Origin: Vulcanimicrobiota bacterium
Lineage (GTDB): Bacteria; Vulcanimicrobiota; Vulcanimicrobiia; Vulcanimicrobiales; Vulcanimicrobiaceae
DNA: 64,000 bases
Reading direction: 5' to 3'
Assembly: GCA_963834895.1 (NCBI GenBank)
Contig: CAWIDM010000003.1
Span: forward strand, 909,569 to 973,568
Shown here: positions 41,873-60,482 of the stretch, piece after piece
Numbering within the stretch: position 1 is the first letter of the stretch
Layout: each line of letters opens with the position of its first letter
Notes under the pieces: model-generated
What the model saw: the letters and a program-made list of their open reading frames with translations, nothing else
Told to the model about the DNA's origin: nothing
Database searches by the model: none
Program-made: the position numbers and the translations under genes

Positions 41873-43422
41873 TTGTAGTTGCGCAGCTTCGGCCAGACCG
41901 AAGCGAGCGGCGTCGTGATCCCCTCGCAAATCGAGATGGGGAATCCGTTCTCAAACGGGCGTCCCCACGGATTCGAAAATCGCGCCACGATGCGGTGAAC
42001 TCGGAAGAGGTGCGCATCCCGGTCGCATTCTCCGTGAACGTCGATCACGACGTTGCCGGTATAGCCGCGCGTCCCCCACATCCAATACTGATTGTGACCC
42101 GAGAGCACCGGCGGCAGGCCGTACTCCGCTCCGAAGAAATCGATCGCCGAAGCCTCACCGTAGTTGCTGGCAAGAATCGCCGCCTGGGCGCGCTTCGCGG
42201 GCGGCAACGAATAGTAGATTTGGGCGACGAGAGCCGCGAGCTCGCGCCATCCGTGCATGTCAGCCCAGTCGGGCGGCAGGTTGCCGATTCTGGTGCGTTC
42301 CGATTTTGCGAGCTTCACCTCGTGCGCCAACATCGTTTGCGCGACGCGGTCGTAGGCCGACATAGTTCGCTCCGGCAAGACCGGCATGAGCAGCGGGACG
42401 AGCAGGAGGCCCGCGCCCAGAACGTAGAGGGCGAGCGCCGGGCGCCAAACCATCTTCGTTTGAGTCCAGGCTTCGATCGTCACCGCGCCCGCGGCGATGA
42501 GGATCGGGTAGACGTCGCCGGGATAATAATCCTTTCCGTGGAGCAGAATCATCTGCGCGATCAGCGCGAGGTAGGCGATGCCGAGAAAGCGCGCGTCGCT
42601 GCGGCGCAGTAACGCGAACAATCCGATGACGGAAACCGGCGCGAACAGCGGGTGCACGATCATCACCTGCGTGACGATGTAATCGAGAGCGGAGAGCTGC
42701 GCGTTCTTATACTCGCCGGCGTTTCGGAGCAACGACCACATCGGGTACCCGTGGCTCGCCTGCCACAGGAAGCTCGGAAGAGCGATTGCCCCAGCCAGGA
42801 ATACGCCGCCGAAAAACCACGGCGTCAGCAGAACGCGCCGCTGGGGCACGAGCAGCAGTCCCGCAAGCATCGACACGGCGAAGAAGACGACGCTGTACTT
42901 GCTCTCCAACGCGACGCCGAGGACCGCGCCGACAGCGAGCCACCAGCGAGGGTCGCCACCCTTCACGATGCGCAACACGTAGAGCGCCGCAAGTGGCCAG
43001 AGCCACAAGCCGACGATATCGGTCGTGATCGTCGTCCCGAAGTGCATCAAAGCCGGAGTCAGCGCGGCAACGAGCGCGGCGAAGAACTCGGCGAAGGCGC
43101 CGCCGCCCAGCTCGATCGCGAGCAGGCAGGTCATGTAGACCGAGGCGGCCGCAAAGAACGCGGGAACCGCTCGCAGTAGAAAGAGCGAGTGTCCAAAAAG
43201 TTGCGAACCGGCGGCCAGAAGCGGCACGATCGGCGGCTGGTCGACGTAGCCCCAGGCCGGGCGGAAGCCGCAGATCACAAAGTACAGCTCGTCGCGAAAG
43301 AAGCCGTAGTGCGGGTTGGCGATCAGATGCACGATCAGCGTCGCGAGCGCCGCGGCCGCCGGGATGGCGCGGACCCGAAGCGCTGTGCTTGGGCGCGAAC
43401 GCCCGCTTCGATCGCCTACCAT
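41869..43422 (-). CDS. GT-C glycosyltransferase, family 39/PMT_2-like (copy A)
   Basis: Polytopic membrane protein. It has [11 protein letters not shown] in the first loop (DE-type motif) and a C-terminal soluble domain. It is a paralog of 47241-48755. ATG 43422 is needed to include TM1, which is conserved with copy B. Confidence 0.75.
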   Translation of the reverse strand: MVGDRSGRSRPSTALRVRAIPAAAALATLIVHLIANPHYGFFRDELYFVICGFRPAWGYVDQPPIVPLLAAGSQLFGHSLFLLRAVPAFFAAASVYMTCLLAIELGGGAFAEFFAALVAALTPALMHFGTTITTDIVGLWLWPLAALYVLRIVKGGDPRWWLAVGAVLGVALESKYSVVFFAVSMLAGLLLVPQRRVLLTPWFFGGVFLAGAIALPSFLWQASHGYPMWSLLRNAGEYKNAQLSALDYIVTQVMIVHPLFAPVSVIGLFALLRRSDARFLGIAYLALIAQMILLHGKDYYPGDVYPILIAAGAVTIEAWTQTKMVWRPALALYVLGAGLLLVPLLMPVLPERTMSAYDRVAQTMLAHEVKLAKSERTRIGNLPPDWADMHGWRELAALVAQIYYSLPPAKRAQAAILASNYGEASAIDFFGAEYGLPPVLSGHNQYWMWGTRGYTGNVVIDVHGECDRDAHLFRVHRIVARFSNPWGRPFENGFPISICEGITTPLASVWPKLRNYN

Positions 43423-43947
43423 GATGAAGAGTGGGGTGTGCCGCTCCACGGCGACTCTTCCCTTTTCGAGTTGCTCGTACTCGAAGGGGCGCAGGCCGGT
43501 CTCTCGTGGGAGACGGTGCTGCGCAAGCGCTCTCGTTACCGCGAGCAATTTGCGGGCTTCGATCCGGCACGAGTCGCGCGGTTCACGCCGGCGCGGATCG
43601 AGCGGCTCCTGCGAGATCCGGGCATCATTCGAAACCGCGCCAAGATCGAATCGGCGATCGACAACGCGCGAGCCGTGCTGCGCGTGCAAAAGGAGTTTGG
43701 AAGCTTCGACGCGTTCCTGTGGGGCTTGGTCGGCGGAGCGCCGATCGTCAACCGGCGCCGGCGCATCGAGCAGCTTCCCGCTGCAACCGACGAATCGCGT
43801 GCGTTGAGCGCCGAGCTGCGGCGACGCGGGTTCCGCTTCGTGGGCCCGACGATTTGTTATTCGTTCATGCAGGCGGCCGGAATGGTGAACGACCACCTCG
43901 TCGACTGCGCGTGGTACCGCTCCGCCCGATCGTTCGAGAAGGAGTAA
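43327..43947 (+). CDS. tag: DNA-3-methyladenine glycosylase I
   Basis: KRCAWA...IAYHDEEWGVP, LEGAQAGLSW, GPTICYSFMQAAGMVNDHLVDC. The Zn ligands (Cys, His, His, Cys) are all present. ATG 43327 is the only canonical start upstream of the essential Cys codon at 43384. Confidence 0.85.
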   Translation: MHDQRRERRGRRDGADPKRCAWARTPASIAYHDEEWGVPLHGDSSLFELLVLEGAQAGLSWETVLRKRSRYREQFAGFDPARVARFTPARIERLLRDPGIIRNRAKIESAIDNARAVLRVQKEFGSFDAFLWGLVGGAPIVNRRRRIEQLPAATDESRALSAELRRRGFRFVGPTICYSFMQAAGMVNDHLVDCAWYRSARSFEKE

Positions 43948-43982
43948 GGCAGCGCTCTTGGGCATGCAGCGGCGTGAAGAGC

Positions 43983-45338
43983 ATGATCGTTCGAAAAAGC
44001 AAGACGCCGGTTGCCATTGGTCTCATCCTCGCGATTTTTGGGCTGGCTGCGTGCCACGGCTACGGGCTCCCGTTCGGCGCTCCGATCGAGAGCGCGGGCG
44101 ATCGCGGCGCGGGGCGTCACGCGGCGACGCCGATCCAGCACGTGGTCGTAATCGTTCAGGAGAATCGGACGCCGGATTATCTCTTCCAAGGCATACCGGG
44201 CGCCGACATCGCGAAATACGCTATTGACTCGCAGGGCGAGCGCGTGCCGCTGCGCCAGATTTCGCTGCGCACGCAGTGGGACCTCAAACACTCCCATGCC
44301 GCGTTCCTCAGAGATTACGACCATGGCAAGATGGACGGTTTCGATGCGGGATTACCGGAACAGTTCCACCTTCGGCCCTTCGGCTATGCACCCGAATCCG
44401 AGGTTGCGCCCTATCACGAGATGGCGAAAGAGTACGCGTTCGCCGACCATATGTTTCAGAGCAATCAAGGGCCGAGCTTTCCCGCGCACTTGTACATCGT
44501 GAGCGGCACGGGCGGCGATCCCGCCATCGCTCCGTATAAGGCCGCGAGCAATCCGCACGACCGGATCAACGGAAGGCCCGCGCCCGGCGGTTGCGACGCG
44601 CGCCGGTCGGTCTACGTCGAGACGATCGATCCGCGCGATGGGGATCCCGGCCCCAAACCCTTCCCATGCTTCAATCGCGCGGTGCTTTCCGATCTTCTGC
44701 ACGCCGAGCACGTGACGTGGCACTACTACCAGCCGCATCGCGGGGCGGGCCGCTGGGAGGCGATGGACGCGTATCGCCACGTTCGCTACAGCCGGCAGTA
44801 CCAGAACGTGATCTGGCCGTCGCAGACGATTCTCACCGACATCAAGCAGGGCCGTCTGGCGAACGTATCGTGGGTGATCCCCGCCGGCGCTTGGTCGGAC
44901 CACGCGGGGCGTCTCGGCTCCACGAAAGGGCCTTCGTGGGTCGCGGCGATCGTCAATGCCGTGGGCGAGAGCAAGTATTGGAGGAGCACGGCGATCTTCA
45001 TCACGTGGGACGATTGGGGCGGCTGGTACGACCACGTCCCGCCGACCATTTACAATTCGTACGAGCTTGGTTTTCGCGTCCCGCTCGTCGTCGTTTCGCC
45101 CTACGCCAAGCGAGGCTACGTCTCGAAAGTCCATCACGAGTTCGGGAGCATCCTGGCCTTTACCGAAGAGACGTTCGGCATTCCGAAAGGCGCACTTGGC
45201 TCGACGGATCGCCGCGCCGACGACCTCATGGACCTCTTCGATTTTAAGCAGAATCCGCGGGAGTTTCACCGCATCGACGCTCCGCCGTTTCATCCGGGAA
45301 ACGACGCCGAGCAGACCGTCGAGGATGAGGACCCCTAG
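43983..45338 (+). CDS. Phosphoesterase-family lipoprotein (phospholipase C / AcpA acid phosphatase type)
   Basis: Lipobox LAAC after a signal peptide. IQHVVVIVQENRTPDYLF is typical of the phosphoesterase family. The C-terminal region has ITWDDWGGWYDHVPP. Confidence 0.75.
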   Translation: MIVRKSKTPVAIGLILAIFGLAACHGYGLPFGAPIESAGDRGAGRHAATPIQHVVVIVQENRTPDYLFQGIPGADIAKYAIDSQGERVPLRQISLRTQWDLKHSHAAFLRDYDHGKMDGFDAGLPEQFHLRPFGYAPESEVAPYHEMAKEYAFADHMFQSNQGPSFPAHLYIVSGTGGDPAIAPYKAASNPHDRINGRPAPGGCDARRSVYVETIDPRDGDPGPKPFPCFNRAVLSDLLHAEHVTWHYYQPHRGAGRWEAMDAYRHVRYSRQYQNVIWPSQTILTDIKQGRLANVSWVIPAGAWSDHAGRLGSTKGPSWVAAIVNAVGESKYWRSTAIFITWDDWGGWYDHVPPTIYNSYELGFRVPLVVVSPYAKRGYVSKVHHEFGSILAFTEETFGIPKGALGSTDRRADDLMDLFDFKQNPREFHRIDAPPFHPGNDAEQTVEDEDP

Positions 45339-45607
45339 TGTGCTGTCCCAGAAGTTCGGTGCATAAAGTCGCGAGCGCCGGAGCGCACTGGCGAGGCGCG
45401 AGGAGGGAGCGTAGCCGTAGCTCTGTGACCGACGAGCAACAAAGCCAGTGCGCATCCGCCGCCGCGACCCTTCGGGCTGGCCGTTTGACGGTCGCGGGCT
45501 GCGTCACTCTTCGCTCGCAAAGCGCTGCTTTTGTCGCTCATCGTTCCTTGCCCGCACTCCACCAAACGGCCAGCTTTATACATCGAACTCCTGGGACAGC
45601 ACACTAG
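45335..45607. mobile_element. MITE-like element E1 (273 bp, 34-bp TIRs, non-autonomous)
   Basis: CTAGTGTGCTGTCCCAGAAGTTCGGTGCATAAAG at 45335-45368 pairs with its inverted partner at 45574-45607, with 3 mismatches in 34. A near-identical copy lies at 56216-56488 in inverted orientation. Confidence 0.8.
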
Positions 45608-45615
45608 GGAACCTC

Positions 45616-47241
45616 CTAGGAACCGAAGAGCTCGCGCAGTTTAAACTTCTGAATCTTGCCGGTGACGGTCATCGGAAAGGAATCGGTAAAGCGGACGTAG
45701 TGCGGAATCTTGAAGTGCGCGATCCGGCCGCGGCAGAACTCGCGCAGATCTTCTTGCGTCAACGCCGCTCCATCGTGCAGGATGACCCAAGCGCAGAGCT
45801 GTTCGCCGAACGTTTCGTCGGGAACGCCGACGACGCTGACGTCCCGGATCGCGGGGTGGCCGAAAAGAAACTCTTCGATCTCTCGCGGATAGATATTCTC
45901 GCCGCCGCGAATGACCATATCCTTGACACGGCCGCAGACGCTAACGTACCCATCGTCGTCCATGATCCCGATGTCGCCCGTATGCATGTAGCGTGCGGGA
46001 TCGATCGCAGCCGCGGTGCTCTCGGGGTCGTTCCAGTAGCCGAGCATCACGAGGTAACCGCGCGCACAGATTTCGCCCGGCGTGCCGCGCGCAACGGTTT
46101 CGCCGCGCTCGTCGACGATTTTCGCCTCTACGTGCGGATGCACGCGGCCGACCGTCGCGACCCGCTTCTCGACCGGATCGTCGGTCGCGGTTTGAAACGA
46201 GCACGGCGAGGTTTCGGTCATGCCGTACGCGATCGTTACTTCTTCCATGTGCATCTCGCCGCGCACGCGCTTCATCACCTCGATCGGGCAGGGCGCTCCC
46301 GCCATGACCCCCGTCCGAAGCGAAGTAACGTCGTAGGATGAAAAATCCGGTAGCGCCAGCTCGGCGATGAACATCGTCGGCACGCCGTAGAGCGAGGTGC
46401 AACGCTCGGATTCCACGGCCGCCAGCGTGGCTTGCGGGTCGAAAGCCGGAGCGGGAATCACGATCGTGGCGCCGTGCGTAACGCAGCCGAGCGTGCCGAG
46501 CACCGATCCGAAGCAGTGGTAGAACGGAACCGGAACGCAGACGCGATCCTCGGCCCTATAGTGCAAAACTTCACCGATGAAGAAGGCGTTGTTCACGATG
46601 TTGTGGTGCGATAGCGTGGCTCCCTTGGGAAAGCCGGTCGTTCCCGACGTGTACTGGATGTTTACGGGCCGGTCGCACTGCGTCGCGCGCTGCCGGTCGC
46701 GCAGCGCGGCGGGGTCGACGCGCTGTGATATCGCCGTGAGGTCGCTCCAGTGCAGATCGCCGGCCCGGCGCGGCTCGCGGTCGCCGATTGCGACCGCGCA
46801 TCGCAACGCGGGCAATCCGTCGCGCACTTCTTCGAGCATTGCCAGATAGTCGCTCGTCTTGGAGTGGGTCTGCAGCAGGAGCACCGAGACCCCGCTCTGG
46901 CTCAGCGCGTAAGCGAGCTCCGCAGTACGATAAGCGGGATTGACGTTGACCAGAATCGCACCGATCTTTGCAACCGCAAACTGTGCGAGGGCCCACTCCG
47001 TGCAGTTCGTCGCCCAAATGCCGACGCGCTCGCCCTGCTCGACGGGCAACGCGATGAGAGCCTGCGCGATCTGATCGCTCGCGCGCTGCAGGTCGCGATA
47101 GGTTAGGCGAATCCCTTGGCTGCAGGAGACCAGCGCGTCCCGTTGTGGGTATATCGCGGCAATCCGATCGAGAAGATCGCCGATGGTGTCGCCTGTCAGC
47201 GGCGTGGCGCTTGCGCCCTGTGCGTAGCTCGGCGCAGGCAT
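45616..47241 (-). CDS. AMP-forming acyl-CoA synthetase
   Basis: 541 aa with AMP-binding motif [12 protein letters not shown], plus GYWNDPE and TGDIG...[16 protein letters not shown]. Its ATG shares one base with the GT39-B stop (TAATG). Confidence 0.9.
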
Positions 47242-48755
47242 TAGATATAGACGCGAAGCTGGGGCCAGAGGGCGGCGAGCGGCTTGGTGATGCCGGTGCA
47301 GATCGAGATCGGTATGTCCTGCTCGTACGAGATCACCCAGGGCGGATTAAATCGGGTGACCAACCGCGCGGCGCGAAAAAGTCCGGGAAAATCGTGGCGC
47401 CCGCAGTCGCCGTCGACGTCGATGACGACGTTGCCGGTATATCCGTGAATTCCCCAAAGCCAGTAATTGTTATGTCCGGAGAGCGCCGGCGGCAGGCCGT
47501 ACTTCGCCCCAAAGAAGTCGATCGCGGCCGCCTCGCCGTAGTTGCTCGCAACGATTGCCGCTTGATCTCGCTGCGCCGCCGGAAGTGCATAGTAGATGCC
47601 CGATACCGTTGCGGCGAGCTCCGGCCAGCCATGCATATCGGCCCAGTCCTCGGGCAGGGCTGCGGTGCGGTGCCGTTCGGTCGCGAGCGCGGATCGCGGG
47701 ATGTGGAGCGCGCGCGCGGCGAAGGAAGTGTAACGCAGCATTGCCGTTTCGGAGAGCACCGGCAGCGCGAATGGTGCGAAGAAAGCGCCCGCCGCAATCG
47801 TCGCCGCCACGACGGCGCCGCGCACCACGTACGCCCGCTGCGTCCAGCCCTCAATTGCGGCGCCGCCGGCCGCGATCAGGATCGGATAGACGTCGGCGGG
47901 ATAGTAGTACTTCGCGTGCAGCGCGACCATTATCGCAATGAGGATGAGATAGGCATACCCGAGGAAGCGCGTCACCCGTCCGCGGAGCAGCCAAATCAGT
48001 CCGATTATCCAGATGGGCCACGTAAAAAGATTTGTAACGAGCAGTTGCTGGAAAAGAAAGAGTCCGGGGGCGGCGACGACGTTCTTTCGGTTGGCGCCGT
48101 TGCGCAGCAGCTCCCACATCGGAAAACCATGGAATGCTTGCCAGAGGAAGTCGGGCAGCGCGATGAGCGCGGCGACGGCGGCGCCGGCTAAGAACCAACG
48201 CGATGCGAGCACGCGCCGCTGCGGAGTGAGCGCCAAACCCGCGAGCAGCGCCACGGCAAAGAAGAGCACGCTGTACTTGCTCTCAAGCGCGATCCCGACC
48301 GCTGTGCCGGCGGCGATCCACCAGCGCGGATCGGCTCCCTTGACGATGCGCAGCACGCAGAGCGCCGTAAGCGGCCAGAGCCAGAGGCCGACCATATCCG
48401 GTCCGACCTTGGCGCCGAAGCTCTCGAGAACCGGCGCCCCGAGGTACGCGAGGGTTGCAAGCGAGGCGGCAAAGACTCCGCCTCCGAGCTCGTATGCAAG
48501 CAAGCACGTCACGTACGCGCCGCCTGCCGCAAAGAGCGCCGCAACCGCGCGCAGCGCGAAGAGCGAATGGCCGAAAAGCTGGGAGCCGGCGGCGAGAAGC
48601 GGCACGACCGGCGGTTGATCGACGTAGCCCCACGCCGGATGGAAGCCGCAAATGATGAAGTAGAGCTCGTCGCGGAAGAAGCCGTAGTGCGGATTGGCCG
48701 CGAGGTGAATGCCGAGCGTGACGAGCGCGGCGATCGCCGCGACCCTCGTTCGCAC
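47241..48755 (-). CDS. GT-C glycosyltransferase, family 39/PMT_2-like (copy B)
   Basis: 504 aa. It has the same architecture and motifs as copy A ([18 protein letters not shown], the C-terminal [12 protein letters not shown]...GHNNYW...ISIC). GTG start at 48755. Confidence 0.8.
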
Positions 48756-55298: not shown

Positions 55299-56219
55299 AT
55301 GGACCTTCTGCGCGAGTTCGAGCTGCGCAATCCCCGCGCGCTTGCGCGGGCGATCTCGCTTGCCGAGGCGGGCCGAGGCGGCGACCTCGTTCGCGCGCTC
55401 TATCCGAAGACCGGACGTGCGACGACGGTCGGCCTTACCGGACCGCCCGGCGTCGGCAAATCGACGCTGGCTTCCGGCCTGGTGCGCAGCGCGCGCTCGC
55501 GCGGCCAGCGCGTGGGCGTCGTATCGGTCGACCCCTCCTCGCCGTTCTCGCACGGCGCACTGCTCGGCGACCGCATCCGTCTTGCGGAGCATTTCACCGA
55601 CGAAGCCGTCTTCATTCGATCGATGGCCAGCCACGGGCATCTCGGCGGCCTCGCCGGCGCGACCGCCGATGCCGTGCTGTTGATGGATGCCTTCGGCTTC
55701 GATCTCGTGCTGATCGAAACCGTCGGCGTCGGACAGAGCGAGGTGGCGATCGCCGAGCTCGCGGAGACGACGATCGTGGCGTTGCAGCCCGGGAGCGGCG
55801 ATTCGATCCAAGTGCTCAAAGCAGGCATCATGGAGATCGCCGACATCTTCGTCGTCAACAAGAGCGACCACCCAATGGCCGATCAGTTGCGCCGAGAGAT
55901 TCGATCGATGATGGAGATGCAGCACTGGCCTCGATGGGTACCCGAACTCATCGCGACGCAAGCATTGGAGGGAAAAGGAATCGACGAGCTGGTGAGCGCG
56001 ATCGAACGCCACACGGCGTACTTGAACGAAACGGGCGAGATCGAAGGGCGGCGCCGCGACGCATTCACCCATCAAGTCCGCCAGCTCGCGCTGGGGCGCC
56101 TGGAGCAACGGCTCGATCGCGCGTTGAAAGCGCAACCGCGCGACGACCTCGACCCATACGAAGCGGCCGATCGCGTTCTCTCCGAGCTCGGTCTCTCGTC
56201 TCCGCGGACGGCACACTAG
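55299..56219 (+). CDS. meaB: Methylmalonyl-CoA mutase accessory GTPase (MeaB/ArgK)
   Basis: GPPGVGKST and VVNKSDH. Only the last 306 codons of the 802-aa track ORF are used; the remainder is antisense to the GH125 gene. Confidence 0.9.
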   Translation: MDLLREFELRNPRALARAISLAEAGRGGDLVRALYPKTGRATTVGLTGPPGVGKSTLASGLVRSARSRGQRVGVVSVDPSSPFSHGALLGDRIRLAEHFTDEAVFIRSMASHGHLGGLAGATADAVLLMDAFGFDLVLIETVGVGQSEVAIAELAETTIVALQPGSGDSIQVLKAGIMEIADIFVVNKSDHPMADQLRREIRSMMEMQHWPRWVPELIATQALEGKGIDELVSAIERHTAYLNETGEIEGRRRDAFTHQVRQLALGRLEQRLDRALKAQPRDDLDPYEAADRVLSELGLSSPRTAH

Positions 56220-56488
56220 TGTGCTGTCCCAGGAGTTCAGTGTATAAAGCTGGCCGTTTGGCGGAATGCGGGCAAGGAACGATGAGCGACAAAAGCAGCG
56301 CTTTGCGAGCGAAGAGTGACGCAGCCCGCGACCGTCAAGCGGCCAGCCCAAAGGGTCGCGGCGGCGGATGCGTACTGGCTTTGTTGCTCGTCGGTCACAG
56401 AGCTACGGCTATGCTCCCTCCTCGCGCCGCGCCAGTGCGCTCCGGCGCTCGCGACTTTATGCACCGAACTCCTGGGACGGCACACTAG
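56216..56488. mobile_element. MITE-like element E2 (273 bp, inverted relative to E1)
   Basis: CTAGTGTGCTGTCCCAGGAGTTCAGTGTATAAAG ... CTTTATGCACCGAACTCCTGGGACGGCACACTAG. It is collinear with the reverse complement of E1 throughout. Confidence 0.8.
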
Positions 56489-58343: not shown

Positions 58344-58760
58344 ATGAACGATCGGCCGCTGCGCATCGTCATCGCTAAGGCCGGCCTCGACGGACACGAC
58401 CGCGGGGCAAAGGTCATCGCGCGCGCTCTGCGCGATGCCGGCATGGAAGTGATCTATACCGGGCTCTTCCAAACGCCCGAGCAGATCGTGCAGACCGCGA
58501 TCCAGGAGGACGCAGACGGCATCGGCCTCTCGATTCTCTCGGGAGCGCACATGACGCTCTTTCCGCTCGTCGTGGAGCAGCTGAAAAGTCAGGACGCTGG
58601 CGACATCGTCTTTTTCGGCGGCGGCACGATTCCGGCCGAAGACGCAAAGCGCCTCAAAGAGCTCGGCGTGCGCGAGATATTCACGCCGGGCGCACCGCTG
58701 CAGGAGATCATCGACTTCGTCGAGCGCGAATGCGGTAAACGGCGCGCGCTGGTAGGTTAG
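58344..58760 (+). CDS. Acyl-CoA mutase small subunit (B12-binding domain)
   Basis: DxHxxG motif GLDGHDRGAKV, and GIGLSILSGAH. AGGAG lies 8 nt upstream of ATG 58344. Confidence 0.9.
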   Translation: MNDRPLRIVIAKAGLDGHDRGAKVIARALRDAGMEVIYTGLFQTPEQIVQTAIQEDADGIGLSILSGAHMTLFPLVVEQLKSQDAGDIVFFGGGTIPAEDAKRLKELGVREIFTPGAPLQEIIDFVERECGKRRALVG

Positions 58761-59031
58761 GAGCCTGCCGGACTATGCTCGTGTGCGATGCTGAGGTCGA
58801 TTTCGGATGAGCTTTAGGAGCGAGGGAGGGAGCATAGCAGCGCTCTGCAACCGACCGAGCGACGACAAGATCGCCGAAATCGACCTCAGCCCTTGGGGTT
58901 GGTCGCGGCGCCAATCGCCGACTGCGTCTCTCCTCGCTCAAATGGCGCTGTCATTCCACGCTCGTCGATCCTTGTCGGCGAATGGCGGCGCGAACAACAG
59001 CGCGCACGACCATAGTCCGGCAGGCTCCTAA
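58757..59031. mobile_element. MITE-like element E3 (275 bp, different TIR family, core homologous to E1/E2)
   Basis: TTAGGAGCCTGCCGGACTATGCTCGTGTGCGATG at 58757-58790 pairs with an inverted partner ending at 59031. The first 21 nt match perfectly and 31 of 34 match overall. There is an internal perfect 17-bp inverted repeat, 58790-58806 with 58874-58890. Confidence 0.75.
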
Positions 59032-60482
59032 TGTCCCGGGTTCGAACGCGCGTCGCGCCGTCGCCCACCGGCGATCCGCACGTAGGGACGGCGTACGTCG
59101 CGCTGGTCAACTACTGCTTCGCGCGCAAGCACGGCGGTGAGTTCGTCCTGCGCATCGAGGACACCGATCAAGCGCGCAGCACCGCCGAGAGCGAGCGCGC
59201 AATCCTCCAGACCCTGCACTGGTGCGGCCTCGATTGGGACGAAGGCCCCGACGTCGGCGGCCCGCACGGCCCTTACCGCCAGAGCGAACGCACCGAGATC
59301 TATCACGAGTACGCGCAGAAGCTGCTGGCCGGCGGCCACGCCTTCAAGTGTTTCTGCGCGCCGCAGCGCCTCGAGGAGATGCGGGTCGCACAGCGCGCCG
59401 CGGGTCAGCCCTCGCGCTACGACGGGCTCTGCCGCGCCTGTTCGCCCGAAGAGGTCGCGCGCCGCGAGGCTGCCGGCGAGCCGTACGTCGTGCGGATGGT
59501 CGTTCCAGACGAAGGAGTTTGCGTCGTCGAAGATCTTCGCCGCGGACCAATCGAGTTCGACTACAAGAGCGTCGACATGCAGGTGCTCGTGAAATCGGAC
59601 GGCATGCCGACCTATCACCTCGCCAACGTCGTCGACGATCACCTCATGGCGATCACGCACGTTTTCCGCGGCGAAGAGTGGGTCTCGAGCGCTCCCAAGC
59701 ACCTCTTGCTCTACTCGTACTTCGGCTGGCAGCCGCCGAAGCTGATGCACCTTCCGCTGCTGCGCAATCCCGACAAGAGCAAGCTGAGCAAACGCAAGAA
59801 CCCCACCGGCATCCTCTTCTACCGCGCGATGGGCTATCTGCCGGAGGCGCTGATCAACTTCTTGGCGTTGCTGGCCAACGCACCGCGCGAGGGCGAGGAC
59901 GAGCTGATGGATCTCGCTGCGATCGTGCGGCGGTTCGAGGTCGAGCACGTGCCGGTCGGCGGCCCCGTCTTCGACGTCGCGAAGCTCGACTGGTTGAACG
60001 CGCGCTACATTCGCGAGCGGCTCGACGCGGCGTCGTTCGTCGAACGCGTCAAGGAGTGGGCGATCTCGCCGCAGCGCGTGACCCGCATTGCCGAGCTCGC
60101 GGCGCCGCGAATCGAGCGCTTGAGCGACTTGGGACCGCTGCTCGCCTTTCTCTTCTCGGGACGCATCGCGCCGCGCGCGCAAGACTTTCAGAGCAAGAAG
60201 CTCGACGAAGACGAGACGAAGCGAGCTCTGACCCTCGCGCTCGCCGAGTTCGACGCGCTGCCCGCCTGGAATGCATTTTCGATCGAGACGGCCATCAAGG
60301 CAGTCGCGGAATCCCTCGACAAGAAGGTGCGCGACGTGGCGCGTCCGTTCTACGTCGCAATCACCGGCAGCCCCACTTCGATTCCGCTCTACGACTCGAT
60401 GGAGCTGCTCGGACGCGACATCGTGCGGGAGCGCCTGCGCAATGCCCTCGATTGCCTGGCGCGCGAATCGGTGCCGGCATGA
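59031..60482 (+). CDS. gltX: Glutamate--tRNA ligase
   Basis: HIGH-type motif PTGDPHVGTA and KMSKS-type motif KLSKRK. 483 aa. Confidence 0.95.
   Translation: MSRVRTRVAPSPTGDPHVGTAYVALVNYCFARKHGGEFVLRIEDTDQARSTAESERAILQTLHWCGLDWDEGPDVGGPHGPYRQSERTEIYHEYAQKLLAGGHAFKCFCAPQRLEEMRVAQRAAGQPSRYDGLCRACSPEEVARREAAGEPYVVRMVVPDEGVCVVEDLRRGPIEFDYKSVDMQVLVKSDGMPTYHLANVVDDHLMAITHVFRGEEWVSSAPKHLLLYSYFGWQPPKLMHLPLLRNPDKSKLSKRKNPTGILFYRAMGYLPEALINFLALLANAPREGEDELMDLAAIVRRFEVEHVPVGGPVFDVAKLDWLNARYIRERLDAASFVERVKEWAISPQRVTRIAELAAPRIERLSDLGPLLAFLFSGRIAPRAQDFQSKKLDEDETKRALTLALAEFDALPAWNAFSIETAIKAVAESLDKKVRDVARPFYVAITGSPTSIPLYDSMELLGRDIVRERLRNALDCLARESVPA

Follow-up and report, generated by a model that had tools for sequence, protein, structure and literature searches.

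Within the 64,000 nt analysed here (the window), a 273-bp unit bounded by terminal inverted repeats (TIRs) fills the gap between two convergent genes, which raises the questions whether it is a mobile element, what kind of machinery might move it, and what is conserved in it. Its flanking genes code for a PF04185 phosphoesterase and an AMP-binding acyl-CoA synthetase (stop codon at 45616–45618). Its 34-nt TIRs are complementary at 31 of 34 positions with 3 mismatches, as described in the initial annotation. The second copy reported there, which is inverted, matches the reverse complement of the first over its full length without gaps (262/273 identical, 11 substitutions). The claim that the element is present twice in the window had to be corrected, because a distant homologue, E2, was missed, so that three copies lie within 64 kb. 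We propose, at a probability of roughly three in four, that the two copies of E1 together with E2 represent one family of non-autonomous, TA-inserting MITEs in the genome of a member of the Eremiobacterota (Candidatus Cybelea / Baltobacteraceae-like); assignment of the host to this phylum is based on the flanking proteins. The coordinates of the elements and of their parts are compiled in Table 1.

Table 1. Elements E1 and E2, their parts, and adjoining host features in the window
Feature	Position	Strand	Remarks
E1 copy 1	45335..45607	-	strand is that matching family alignment A6
E1 copy 1, element proper	45338-45604		G...C; TA at 45336-45337 and 45605-45606, within CTAG...CTAG
Left TIR, copy 1	45335..45368	.	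pairs with 45574-45607, forming closing stem P1
Right TIR, copy 1	45574..45607	.	
Hairpin module A', copy 1	45366..45469	-	covarying stem
Apical core of module A', copy 1	45395-45446		nearly invariant; includes CUCCCUCCU
Hairpin module B', copy 1	45475..45576	-	inverted paralogue of A'
Apical core of module B', copy 1	45496-45553		nearly invariant; includes AAGGAACGAUGAGCGACAAAAGCAGCGC
Phosphoesterase TAG stop codon	45336..45338	+	duplicated TA plus first G of E1 copy 1
Host flank of copy 2, GGACGGCACACTAG	56206..56219	+	14/14 identical to right end of E1 copy 2
E1 copy 2	56216..56488	+	between meaB and methylmalonyl-CoA mutase gene; inverted relative to copy 1
TIRs of E1 copy 2	56216-56249 and 56455-56488		
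Modules of E1 copy 2	B' 56246-56349; A' 56354-56457		
meaB TAG stop codon	56217..56219	+	TA plus first G of E1 copy 2
E2	58757..59031	-	275 bp; TA 58758-58759, 269-bp element GGAGCC...GGCTCC 58760-59028, TA 59029-59030
TIR arms of E2 (37 nt)	58757-58793 and 58995-59031		
Modules of E2	A' 58788-58891; B' 58897-59000		

The common anatomy is that of a TIR of about 34 nt enclosing two inverted, paralogous hairpin modules of about 100 nt each, with a three-way junction as the predicted fold. E1 and E2 share this fold as well as the conserved inner segments (cores), but their TIRs are unrelated, the ends reading TAGTGTGCTGTCCCAGRAGTTCG and TAGGAGCCTGCCGGACTATG. A 27-nt TIR pattern, allowing up to 3 mismatches, matched exactly the 4 expected ends of E1, and 0 matches occurred in 100 dinucleotide-preserving shuffles. 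E1 has a GC content of about 68%. The locus of copy 1 is also present in an independent Logan assembly, the respective contig (L070, 1.8 kb) ending 77 nt into the repeat. Reads of SRR28061374 contain the source genome at 99.9% identity.

The window contains no transposase gene, as had been stated before: a Pfam scan of about 44 window ORFs and the synteny annotation of the region 34.8–60.5 kb yielded housekeeping genes only. The two ORFs beginning with MCCPRSS, which had been regarded as the TIRs read as protein, are indeed found one per strand with 89 aa each, and have no Pfam match. A small protein preceded by an SD-like AAGGA and starting with a stretch of 16 residues was considered but not accepted: the ATG is replaced by ACG in E2, the L082 sequence is frameshifted, and the downstream sequence is unconserved. 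The earlier remark that the sequence is not a recognisable named family also held, as no Rfam 15 family reached its gathering score anywhere in the window, E1 had no match at E<=10, and E2 had only chance-level matches. BLAST searches of plasmid and phage collections with the unit and with the 34-nt TIR returned no match, a pattern scan of viral contigs for the conserved core gave nothing, and TIR sub-strings in full-text literature produced PCR-primer coincidences only.

Further copies, empty sites and a choice between TA and CTAG as the target duplication had been named in the initial annotation as points to check, and together with the missing match to a described RNA family they support it. 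Three diverged family members occur at unrelated loci on the Eremiobacterota contigs L076, L077, and L082; peat and soil samples are sources of such contigs. Three related contigs are devoid of the element at the meaB–mcm junction, and likewise at the mcmB–gltX junction; about 80 kb of syntenic DNA of relatives contain zero copies. At the locus of E1 copy 1 a clean empty site is absent because the relatives have an abhydrolase gene in place of the phosphoesterase gene. All three window copies have TA on either side. The filled site of E2, GGT-TA-[E2]-TA-ATG, corresponds to GG(C/G/T)TGATG in the relatives, and the empty contigs L073, L074, and L075 align with it precisely when 2 bp are taken as duplicated. 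The filled site in L082 reads C-TA-[E1-type]-TA-ATG, and those in L054, L065, and L068 read C-TA..TA-A; the insertions of E2 and in L082 used TAATG. Among ends of the E1 TIR class with intact TA, 26/29 have C and 22/26 have G as the outer base. The duplication thus comprises the 2 bp TA, with CTAG as a site preference. A 4-bp duplication of CTAG or YTAA was rejected because the two flanking tetranucleotides differ: the left one is TTAG in E2 and CTAG in L054, L065, L068, and L082, and the right one is CTAA in all of these. A 3-bp (TNA) duplication disagrees with the empty site of E2. Taken together, the units are shorter than about 400 bp with TIRs, duplicate their target site, have no coding capacity, and are multi-copy, with sites that are occupied in some genomes and empty in relatives, as is usual for bacterial MITEs.

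In all three window copies, TA and the first G of the element constitute the TAG stop codon of the upstream gene, and a stop codon is found at the element junction also in L082 and L076. With G as its first base, an element that enters the TA of a TAA or TAG stop restores a TAG stop, so that insertions at gene ends are tolerable; to hit a stop codon and then rebuild it is a route by which a TA-inserting element can be harmless. E2 precisely separates the stop codon of the gene of the B12-binding mutase subunit (58758–58760) from the ATG of gltX (59031–59033). The gene pairs mcmB–gltX and trkA–trkA have overlapping stop and start codons (TGATG in relatives; TAATG inferred at two filled sites), and since the element splits this overlap, operon expression should be affected. 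At copy 2, identity of the 14-nt host flank to the right end of the element makes the junction palindromic.

Exact-pattern scans located the E1 TIR core at 69 public loci (36 genome and 33 metagenome loci) in several phyla, always in units of 90–270 bp, which are mostly flanked by CTAG and often abut one another. The E1 TIR is identical in 23/23 positions to the ends of MITEs from other phyla whose interiors are unrelated, and such an identical 23-nt end in several phyla points to a widespread transposase, yet to be identified. Both the spread of the TIR across phyla and the better conservation of the interior had escaped the initial annotation. A search for a full-length IS with the same ends, suggested there, was performed with exact 20-mer patterns in genome, metagenome and viral collections, the source genome being in neither DNA collection, and it recovered only short units from GTDB representative genomes, JGI metagenomes, and IMG/VR. 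Two TIR-bounded candidates for an autonomous element were discarded: L007 (1.3 kb) contains only an XRE-type HTH ORF, L014 (2.9 kb) consists of two separate MITEs around truA, clpS, and bioF-like genes, and neither has a transposase.

The element inserts at a TA dinucleotide that becomes duplicated, as the filled and empty sites show, with E1 strongly preferring CTAG. Judging from this TA/CTAG targeting, a DDE transposase acting in trans, most likely of the IS630/Tc1-mariner type, would be the mobiliser. The strict 2-bp TA duplication and the CTAG-type preference of the E1 TIR class are both consistent with an IS630/Tc1-mariner origin, IS630 being an element that targets CTAG and duplicates TA; the ends of the family may bear some resemblance to those of Tc1 or Tc3. 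The transposase family is not settled by this, because TA duplication has also been reported for some IS5-family (IS427-group) elements, and IS427-group elements can yield duplications of 2–4 bp. Mobilisation by an IS5-family (IS427-group or PIF/Harbinger-like) transposase, all else being as proposed, is the alternative to be taken most seriously, even if we consider it rather unlikely. E1 and E2 both start with G (GTGTGC and GGAGCC), and this initial G together with the G..TGT...CA.AAGT flavour of the ends is reminiscent of IS5-family ends such as those of ISPsy19 (GAGGGTGTAGACAAAAT) and MITEPsy1 (GGAAGGTCTGAAAAAGCC), the latter with CTAG or YTAA as targets (PMC3189936). The 4-bp duplication expected at such targets is nevertheless excluded by the E2 empty site and the C-TA..TA-A cases, a 3-bp TNA duplication is likewise a poor fit, strict duplication of TA combined with preference for CTAG is documented IS630 behaviour, and the scans for an autonomous partner did not reveal any IS5-type element with these ends.

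The preferred reading of a TA-inserting MITE family has to accommodate an interior that is conserved in an uncommon manner. The predicted structure has a z-score of about -10, and 93.6% of the cells of the family alignment are paired. Double (compensatory) changes affect 45 of the 98 base pairs, as compared to 15.4±2.8 in shuffles and 6–11 in slid controls, in an alignment of six sequences from about five lineages. The two apical cores of about 50 nt are about 95–100% conserved between lineages whose stems differ by 20–35%. Going by these sequences, the folded shape and the two inner segments are better conserved than the ends, which is the reverse of a textbook MITE; the element belongs to a known kind, but its conservation pattern is unusual. 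As seen in the alignment, stems differ between lineages by compensatory substitutions, cores remain almost invariant, and the TIRs can be exchanged completely, as in E1 versus E2. From this pattern, selection is inferred to act on the folded body itself, either as co-transcribed RNA or as hairpin DNA. The module of about 100 nt is found in two inverted copies per element, singly in a 165-bp element of marine origin, and in one case as a hairpin on its own.

These features could also suggest that the main role of the unit is that of a functional structured RNA or of a hairpin-DNA device, the module being selected and the terminal stem being a mere closing helix, with mobility secondary or dependent on borrowed TIR/transposase systems. 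The covarying stems with near-invariant apical cores, the sharing of cores but not TIRs by E1 and E2, and the occurrence of a lone A'-type hairpin (L082:8567–8676) and of a single-module element in L067 would be in line with this. So would the excess of G·U over A·C cells (22 versus 10) on one strand, the same for which the structure was predicted, and the co-directional orientation of 4/5 informative copies with the flanking genes (opposite in 1), neither of which is significant. Identity of the E1 TIR to MITE ends with unrelated interiors in other phyla, however, indicates that the TIR sequence itself matters, and syntenic relatives without the element indicate that it is dispensable. Moreover, >90% Watson-Crick pairing with near-perfect 34-bp stems is typical of DNA palindromes and MITEs and not of ncRNA genes, a consensus scan detected no promoter- or terminator-like site within the elements, and an Rfam hit is lacking, so that we regard a primary role as RNA or device as decidedly unlikely. 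Even less probable, to the point of being hardly credible, is a hairpin-recognised single-strand transposition substrate of the REPIN or PATE-like type, served by an HUH Y1 transposase (RAYT or IS200/IS605 TnpA), in which the TA "duplication" would consist of the target TA plus a terminal TA of the element. Insertion 3' of TA looks identical to TA duplication by sequence alone, and conserved subterminal hairpins with covarying stems, as well as a conserved terminal TAG beside a palindrome, would suit such a substrate. Long TIRs and the symmetric G...C/TA layout are, in contrast, foreign to IS200/IS605-type ends, 270 bp far exceed REP or REPIN units, and abutting copies that share a single TA fit cut-and-paste into TA. 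Neither the window nor the annotated loci of the relatives contain a Y1 transposase gene. REP/REPIN elements are inverted pairs of palindromic units of 20–40 nt that are associated with a RAYT gene, and membership of this class was dismissed on these grounds, given a unit of 273 bp with 34-nt TIRs.

Duplication of TA is common to the Correia/NEMIS elements of Neisseria, the ERIC/YPAL elements of enterobacteria, and the plant Stowaway elements. Like the present TA-inserting family, RUP (repeat unit of pneumococcus) is a small non-coding TIR element that inserts at TA. It is found between genes in many copies, its mobilisation is presumed to occur in trans, and similar TIRs as well as the TA target link it to IS630-Spn1 (PMC2229807). 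RUP is, however, AT-rich, measures 107 bp, and has the TIRs of a resident IS that is known, whereas E1 is a GC-rich sequence of 273 bp that contains two hairpin modules and for which the searches yielded no partner IS. Correia/NEMIS and ERIC/YPAL are likewise TA-flanked MITEs, which are co-transcribed with their neighbours and form long RNA hairpins (PMC2229807, PMC3184786). They consist of one long hairpin defined by conserved TIRs and have no sequence similarity to the present family, which in contrast folds as a three-way junction, its apical cores being invariant and its TIRs exchangeable. A phylogenetically conserved loop motif in a two-armed element is known from Caulobacter CIR, and a cruciform-like RNA structure maintained by compensatory changes from Bacillus bcr1 (PMC2229807, PMC3184786); both differ in host, size, target duplication (5 bp for bcr1), and sequence, and the CIR loop motif GANTC is not the motif conserved here. 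MITEPsy1 and other IS5-family MITEs resemble E1 as short TIR elements at CTAG or YTAA sites (PMC3189936), but MITEPsy1 duplicates all 4 nt and the present family TA only. Stowaway and the cyanobacterial Nezha are comparable as deletion-type non-autonomous partners of DNA transposons, Nezha having been recognised from loci that are occupied in one genome and empty in a related one, and by TIRs in common with ISNpu3 (PMC3184786). These two are defined by TIR identity to a known autonomous element, and they are not known to possess a conserved interior with covariation.

Covarying stems, invariant loops and replaceable TIRs bear on a long-standing question, namely whether bacterial MITEs persist solely as substrates of transposases, or also owing to an action of their folded transcripts. 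An unlikely but conceivable extension of the MITE reading is that the module of about 100 nt is a functional device that at least two unrelated TIR systems (those of E1 and E2) have carried. It would serve either as an RNA acting in cis to maintain expression of the flanking genes once the element has inserted at a stop/start site, or as the part that the mobilising machinery actually recognises. If so, the family would represent a modular mobile element with a body and exchangeable ends, and not a decayed IS. The Eremiobacterota (WPS-2) are an uncultured phylum, and we know of no description of their mobile DNA. The family is a marker of recent genome change, as it distinguishes genomes with about 94% MeaB identity. 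The MeaB protein at copy 2 itself carries a tail of 7 aa, SSPRTAH, which is absent from its closest homologues.

The 273-bp unit E1 and its distantly related 275-bp counterpart E2 constitute a new MITE family with an unusual and testable conservation pattern. As stated in the initial annotation, the termini of E1 copy 1 are 34-bp terminal inverted repeats (TIRs) with 3 mismatches, and copy 2 is an inverted copy of the whole 273-nt unit; the two copies align without gaps and differ by 11 substitutions. A 27-nt TIR pattern, allowing up to 3 mismatches, matched exactly four sites in the window, i.e., the four ends of the two E1 units, and had no match in 100 dinucleotide-preserving shuffles. The presumed presence of two copies applies to E1, but a repeat survey of the window revealed E2 as a further unit with 37-nt TIRs. 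Although the ends of E2 (TTAGGAGCCTGCCGG...) bear no relation to the E1 ends, both units fold into a three-way junction of the same form, the alignment of E2 with E1 runs through both interior cores, and the family HMM matches E2 with E = 1.6e-54. Therefore, three members of one family are present in the window. The two ORFs starting with MCCPRSS exist (89 aa each), albeit without a Pfam match. No sequence match to a described element or RNA family was found, in agreement with the earlier failure to recognise a named repeat; in Rfam, the window had no match at the gathering score, and E1 had none at E ≤ 10.

Coordinates of the elements and associated features
Feature	Contig	Position (strand)	Context
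E1 copy 1	window	45335-45607 (-)	
TIRs of copy 1	window	45335-45368, 45574-45607	
E1 copy 2	window	56216-56488 (+)	
E2	window	58757-59031 (-)	
Stop codon of gene upstream of copy 1	window	45336-45338	TA + G
Stop codon of gene upstream of copy 2	window	56217-56219	TA + G
Stop codon of gene upstream of E2	window	58758-58760	TA + G
Paralogous stretches	window	42024-43364, 47402-48742	72-78% identity, 5378 bp apart
Synteny break	window	43915-45622	copy-1 locus
Host flank left of copy 2	window	56193-56219	CTCCGCGGACGGCACACTAG
MeaB C-terminus	window	56196-56219	...SELGLSSPRTAH
Full-length copy	L076		between rseP and ispG
Full-length copy	L077 (also L078-L081)		between genes of a glycosyltransferase and a class II aminoacyl-tRNA synthetase
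Full-length copy	L082		between two trkA genes
Lone hairpin	L082	8567-8676	3' end of a Vgb_lyase-domain gene
Fragmented kdp operon	L082	15436-19907	KdpA in pieces, unannotated ORFs between
Segment between E1-class ends	L007	6057-7382	1.3 kb

Empty sites were identified by comparison with three related contigs, whose MeaB proteins are 94% (L073, L074) or 91% (L075) identical to that of the window. Copy 2 is located between meaB and the gene of the methylmalonyl-CoA mutase large subunit, and its 273 bp are absent from this junction in all three relatives. Their mcmB-gltX junction reads GG(C/G/T)TGATG, the start codon overlapping the stop codon, whereas that of the window reads GGT-TA-[269 bp]-TA-ATG. 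When E2 and one TA are deleted, the sequence falls exactly into the relatives' register; duplications of 3 bp or 4 bp do not fit and were rejected. In the E1 TIR class (47 units), ends with intact TA have C as the outer base in 26/29 cases and G in 22/26 cases. Exceptions to the CTAG flanks, of the type C-TA...TA-A, occur in L054, L065, L068 and L082 (in the latter as C-TA-[element]-TA-ATG, the same kind of site as that of E2); they are predicted by TA duplication at CTAG-like sites, but not by CTAG duplication. The choice between TA and CTAG, which the initial annotation had left to be settled, thus falls on a 2-bp TA duplication, and the family consists of mobile insertions that duplicate TA and prefer CTAG sites. 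In all three window copies as well as in L082, the stop codon of the upstream gene consists of the duplicated TA and the first G of the element, while in L076 a TAA stop abuts the element end. In host DNA of ~68% GC, TA is presumably rare except in stop codons; since the element starts with G and rebuilds a TAG stop, insertions in stop codons would survive.

Protein searches with the two spurious E1 ORFs retrieved "hypothetical proteins" which are translated element copies, and their contigs contain three more full-length copies at unrelated loci. Two other matches, P0246 and P0247 (44 and 46 aa), appear to be translated from shorter copies in which one hairpin is missing. The copy-1 locus itself was recovered at 99.9% identity in a Logan contig from SRR28061374, which ends 77 nt into the element. 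The break falls in a stretch that is the same in both E1 copies, where a short-read assembly would be expected to stop at a repeat. The seemingly fragmented kdp operon of L082 may be due to insertions or to long-read frameshift errors.

The family has a conserved fold. The TIR arms match within each copy but differ between copies at 4-12 positions (for example, GCTGTCCC, GGTCTCCTTC, TCTTGTCGAG, GGTGCCTC), and the internal hairpin stems of both modules behave likewise, whereas two apical segments, GGAACGATGAGCGACAAAAGCAGCGCTTTGCGAGCGAAGAG and TTGTTGCTCGTCGGTCACAGAGCTA.GGCTATGCTCCCTCCTCGCG, are ~95-100% identical among all E1-type copies and can still be recognised in E2. In a six-sequence alignment, standard pairs account for 93.6% of the cells, compared to 82.5% after shuffling. 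Both-side changes affect 45/98 pairs, with 22 such pairs in the TIR stem and 10 and 9, respectively, in the two module stems. Shuffles yielded 15.4±2.8, none of 500 reaching 45, and sliding the partner by 1-3 columns yielded 6-11; as the sequences are few and related, the pattern is real, but the counts do not amount to a formal test. With a covariance model built on one hairpin, the other is detected in reverse orientation, hence the element consists of two inverted paralogous modules enclosed by a TIR stem. The same model matches the single hairpin of a 165-bp L067 element with E1 TIR (E = 0.07), and a lone hairpin in L082, an A'-type module (one of the two paralogous hairpin modules) which has a 17-bp stem of its own and a core resembling that of E2, but no surrounding TIRs.

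A conserved peptide (SD-like AAGGA plus ATG) encoded by the cores was rejected, because E2 has ACG and the ATG of L082 is out of frame with the second block; the cores match neither consensus sigma-70 promoters nor intrinsic terminators. The family lacks coding capacity. Its functional strand is not settled by the count of G·U versus A·C cells (22 versus 10), and its orientation relative to neighbouring genes is co-directional in four cases and opposite in one.

The 20-nt core GTGTGCYGTCCCAGRAGTTC of the E1-type ends occurs at 36 loci in GTDB representative genomes, ~25 of them in one Sumerlaeaceae MAG and the others in Acidoferrales and "Deltaproteobacteria" MAGs, and the T-only form GTGTGCTGTCCCAGRAGTTC at 33 loci in JGI metagenomes, both counts referring to loci outside the window's own genome. 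Wherever the partner end could be found, it bounds a unit of 90-270 bp, usually with CTAG flanks and mostly with an interior unrelated to E1. None of these TIR-bounded units contains a transposase, and two larger candidates were rejected as autonomous elements. Copies of this TIR class often adjoin each other, sharing a junction; ~94-bp elements in the Sumerlaeaceae MAG JBPCLP01 (L004, L005, L013, L027) form head-to-tail and abutting arrays with TA/CTAG junctions in common. The L007 segment lacks a transposase, and the ORF enclosed in it codes for a 124-aa XRE-type helix-turn-helix protein; the segment may consist of a gene flanked by two MITEs or represent a single element with cargo. An interior motif, GTCAYCCTGAGCGWAGCGAAGG, is common to MITEs of this class in L050, L057, L059 and L065, and reversed in L055; it appears to represent a distinct palindromic module that is repeated widely in soil bacteria.

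The TA-duplicating insertion, the empty sites and the lack of coding capacity uphold the reading of E1 as a non-autonomous MITE, which would move by cut-and-paste, catalyzed by a DDE transposase supplied in trans. IS630 is a documented precedent for TA duplication at CTAG; an enzyme of the IS5/IS427 group is a possible alternative. A duplication mode of the MITEPsy1 type (4 bp, CTAG/YTAA; PMC3189936) is excluded here. Among bacterial MITEs, RUP with IS630-Spn1 provides a precedent (PMC2229807). The E1 end shares 23 identical nt with the termini of MITEs from other phyla whose interiors are unrelated, which indicates that the TIR sequence is functionally read, and persistence of the body under different ends suggests separate selection on the body, which may relate to tolerance of operon insertion, RNA processing, or binding of transposase or host factors. 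The family works like RUP, Correia, ERIC, Nezha and Stowaway, while its conserved structure and loop motifs recall CIR and bcr1 (PMC2229807, PMC3184786).

Best named matches of the flanking proteins are from Eremiobacterota MAGs (Candidatus Aquilonibacter, Cybelea, Baltobacteraceae, Velthaea). Pfam scans of ~44 window ORFs and synteny with annotated related contigs indicated housekeeping genes only (mur/ddl cluster, groEL, lon, pheST, meaB-mcm, gltX, and the glyoxylate-shunt genes of isocitrate lyase and malate synthase), and no transposase, as had been claimed. The paralogous stretches represent two PMT_2-type glycosyltransferase genes, judged by synteny with relatives. Copy 1 indeed separates convergent genes, coding for a PF04185 phosphoesterase and an AMP-binding acyl-CoA synthetase. 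The latter gene is followed by an alpha/beta-hydrolase gene in L071 and L072, but by the phosphoesterase gene and copy 1 in the window; copy 1 therefore borders on a gene replacement.

To the left of copy 2, the host flank matches the element's own right end at 14/14 positions and, over a longer stretch, at 18/20, which makes the junction palindromic; in L073, the orthologous site (GGCGGGAGACTAAC) matches at 9/14 positions. This palindrome could be left over from an older copy that abutted here, or reflect a preference for targets resembling the element ends. The closest homologues of the window MeaB end in ...SELGL; in the window, TCG stands in place of the ancestral meaB TAG, and translation continues to the TAG at the element junction.
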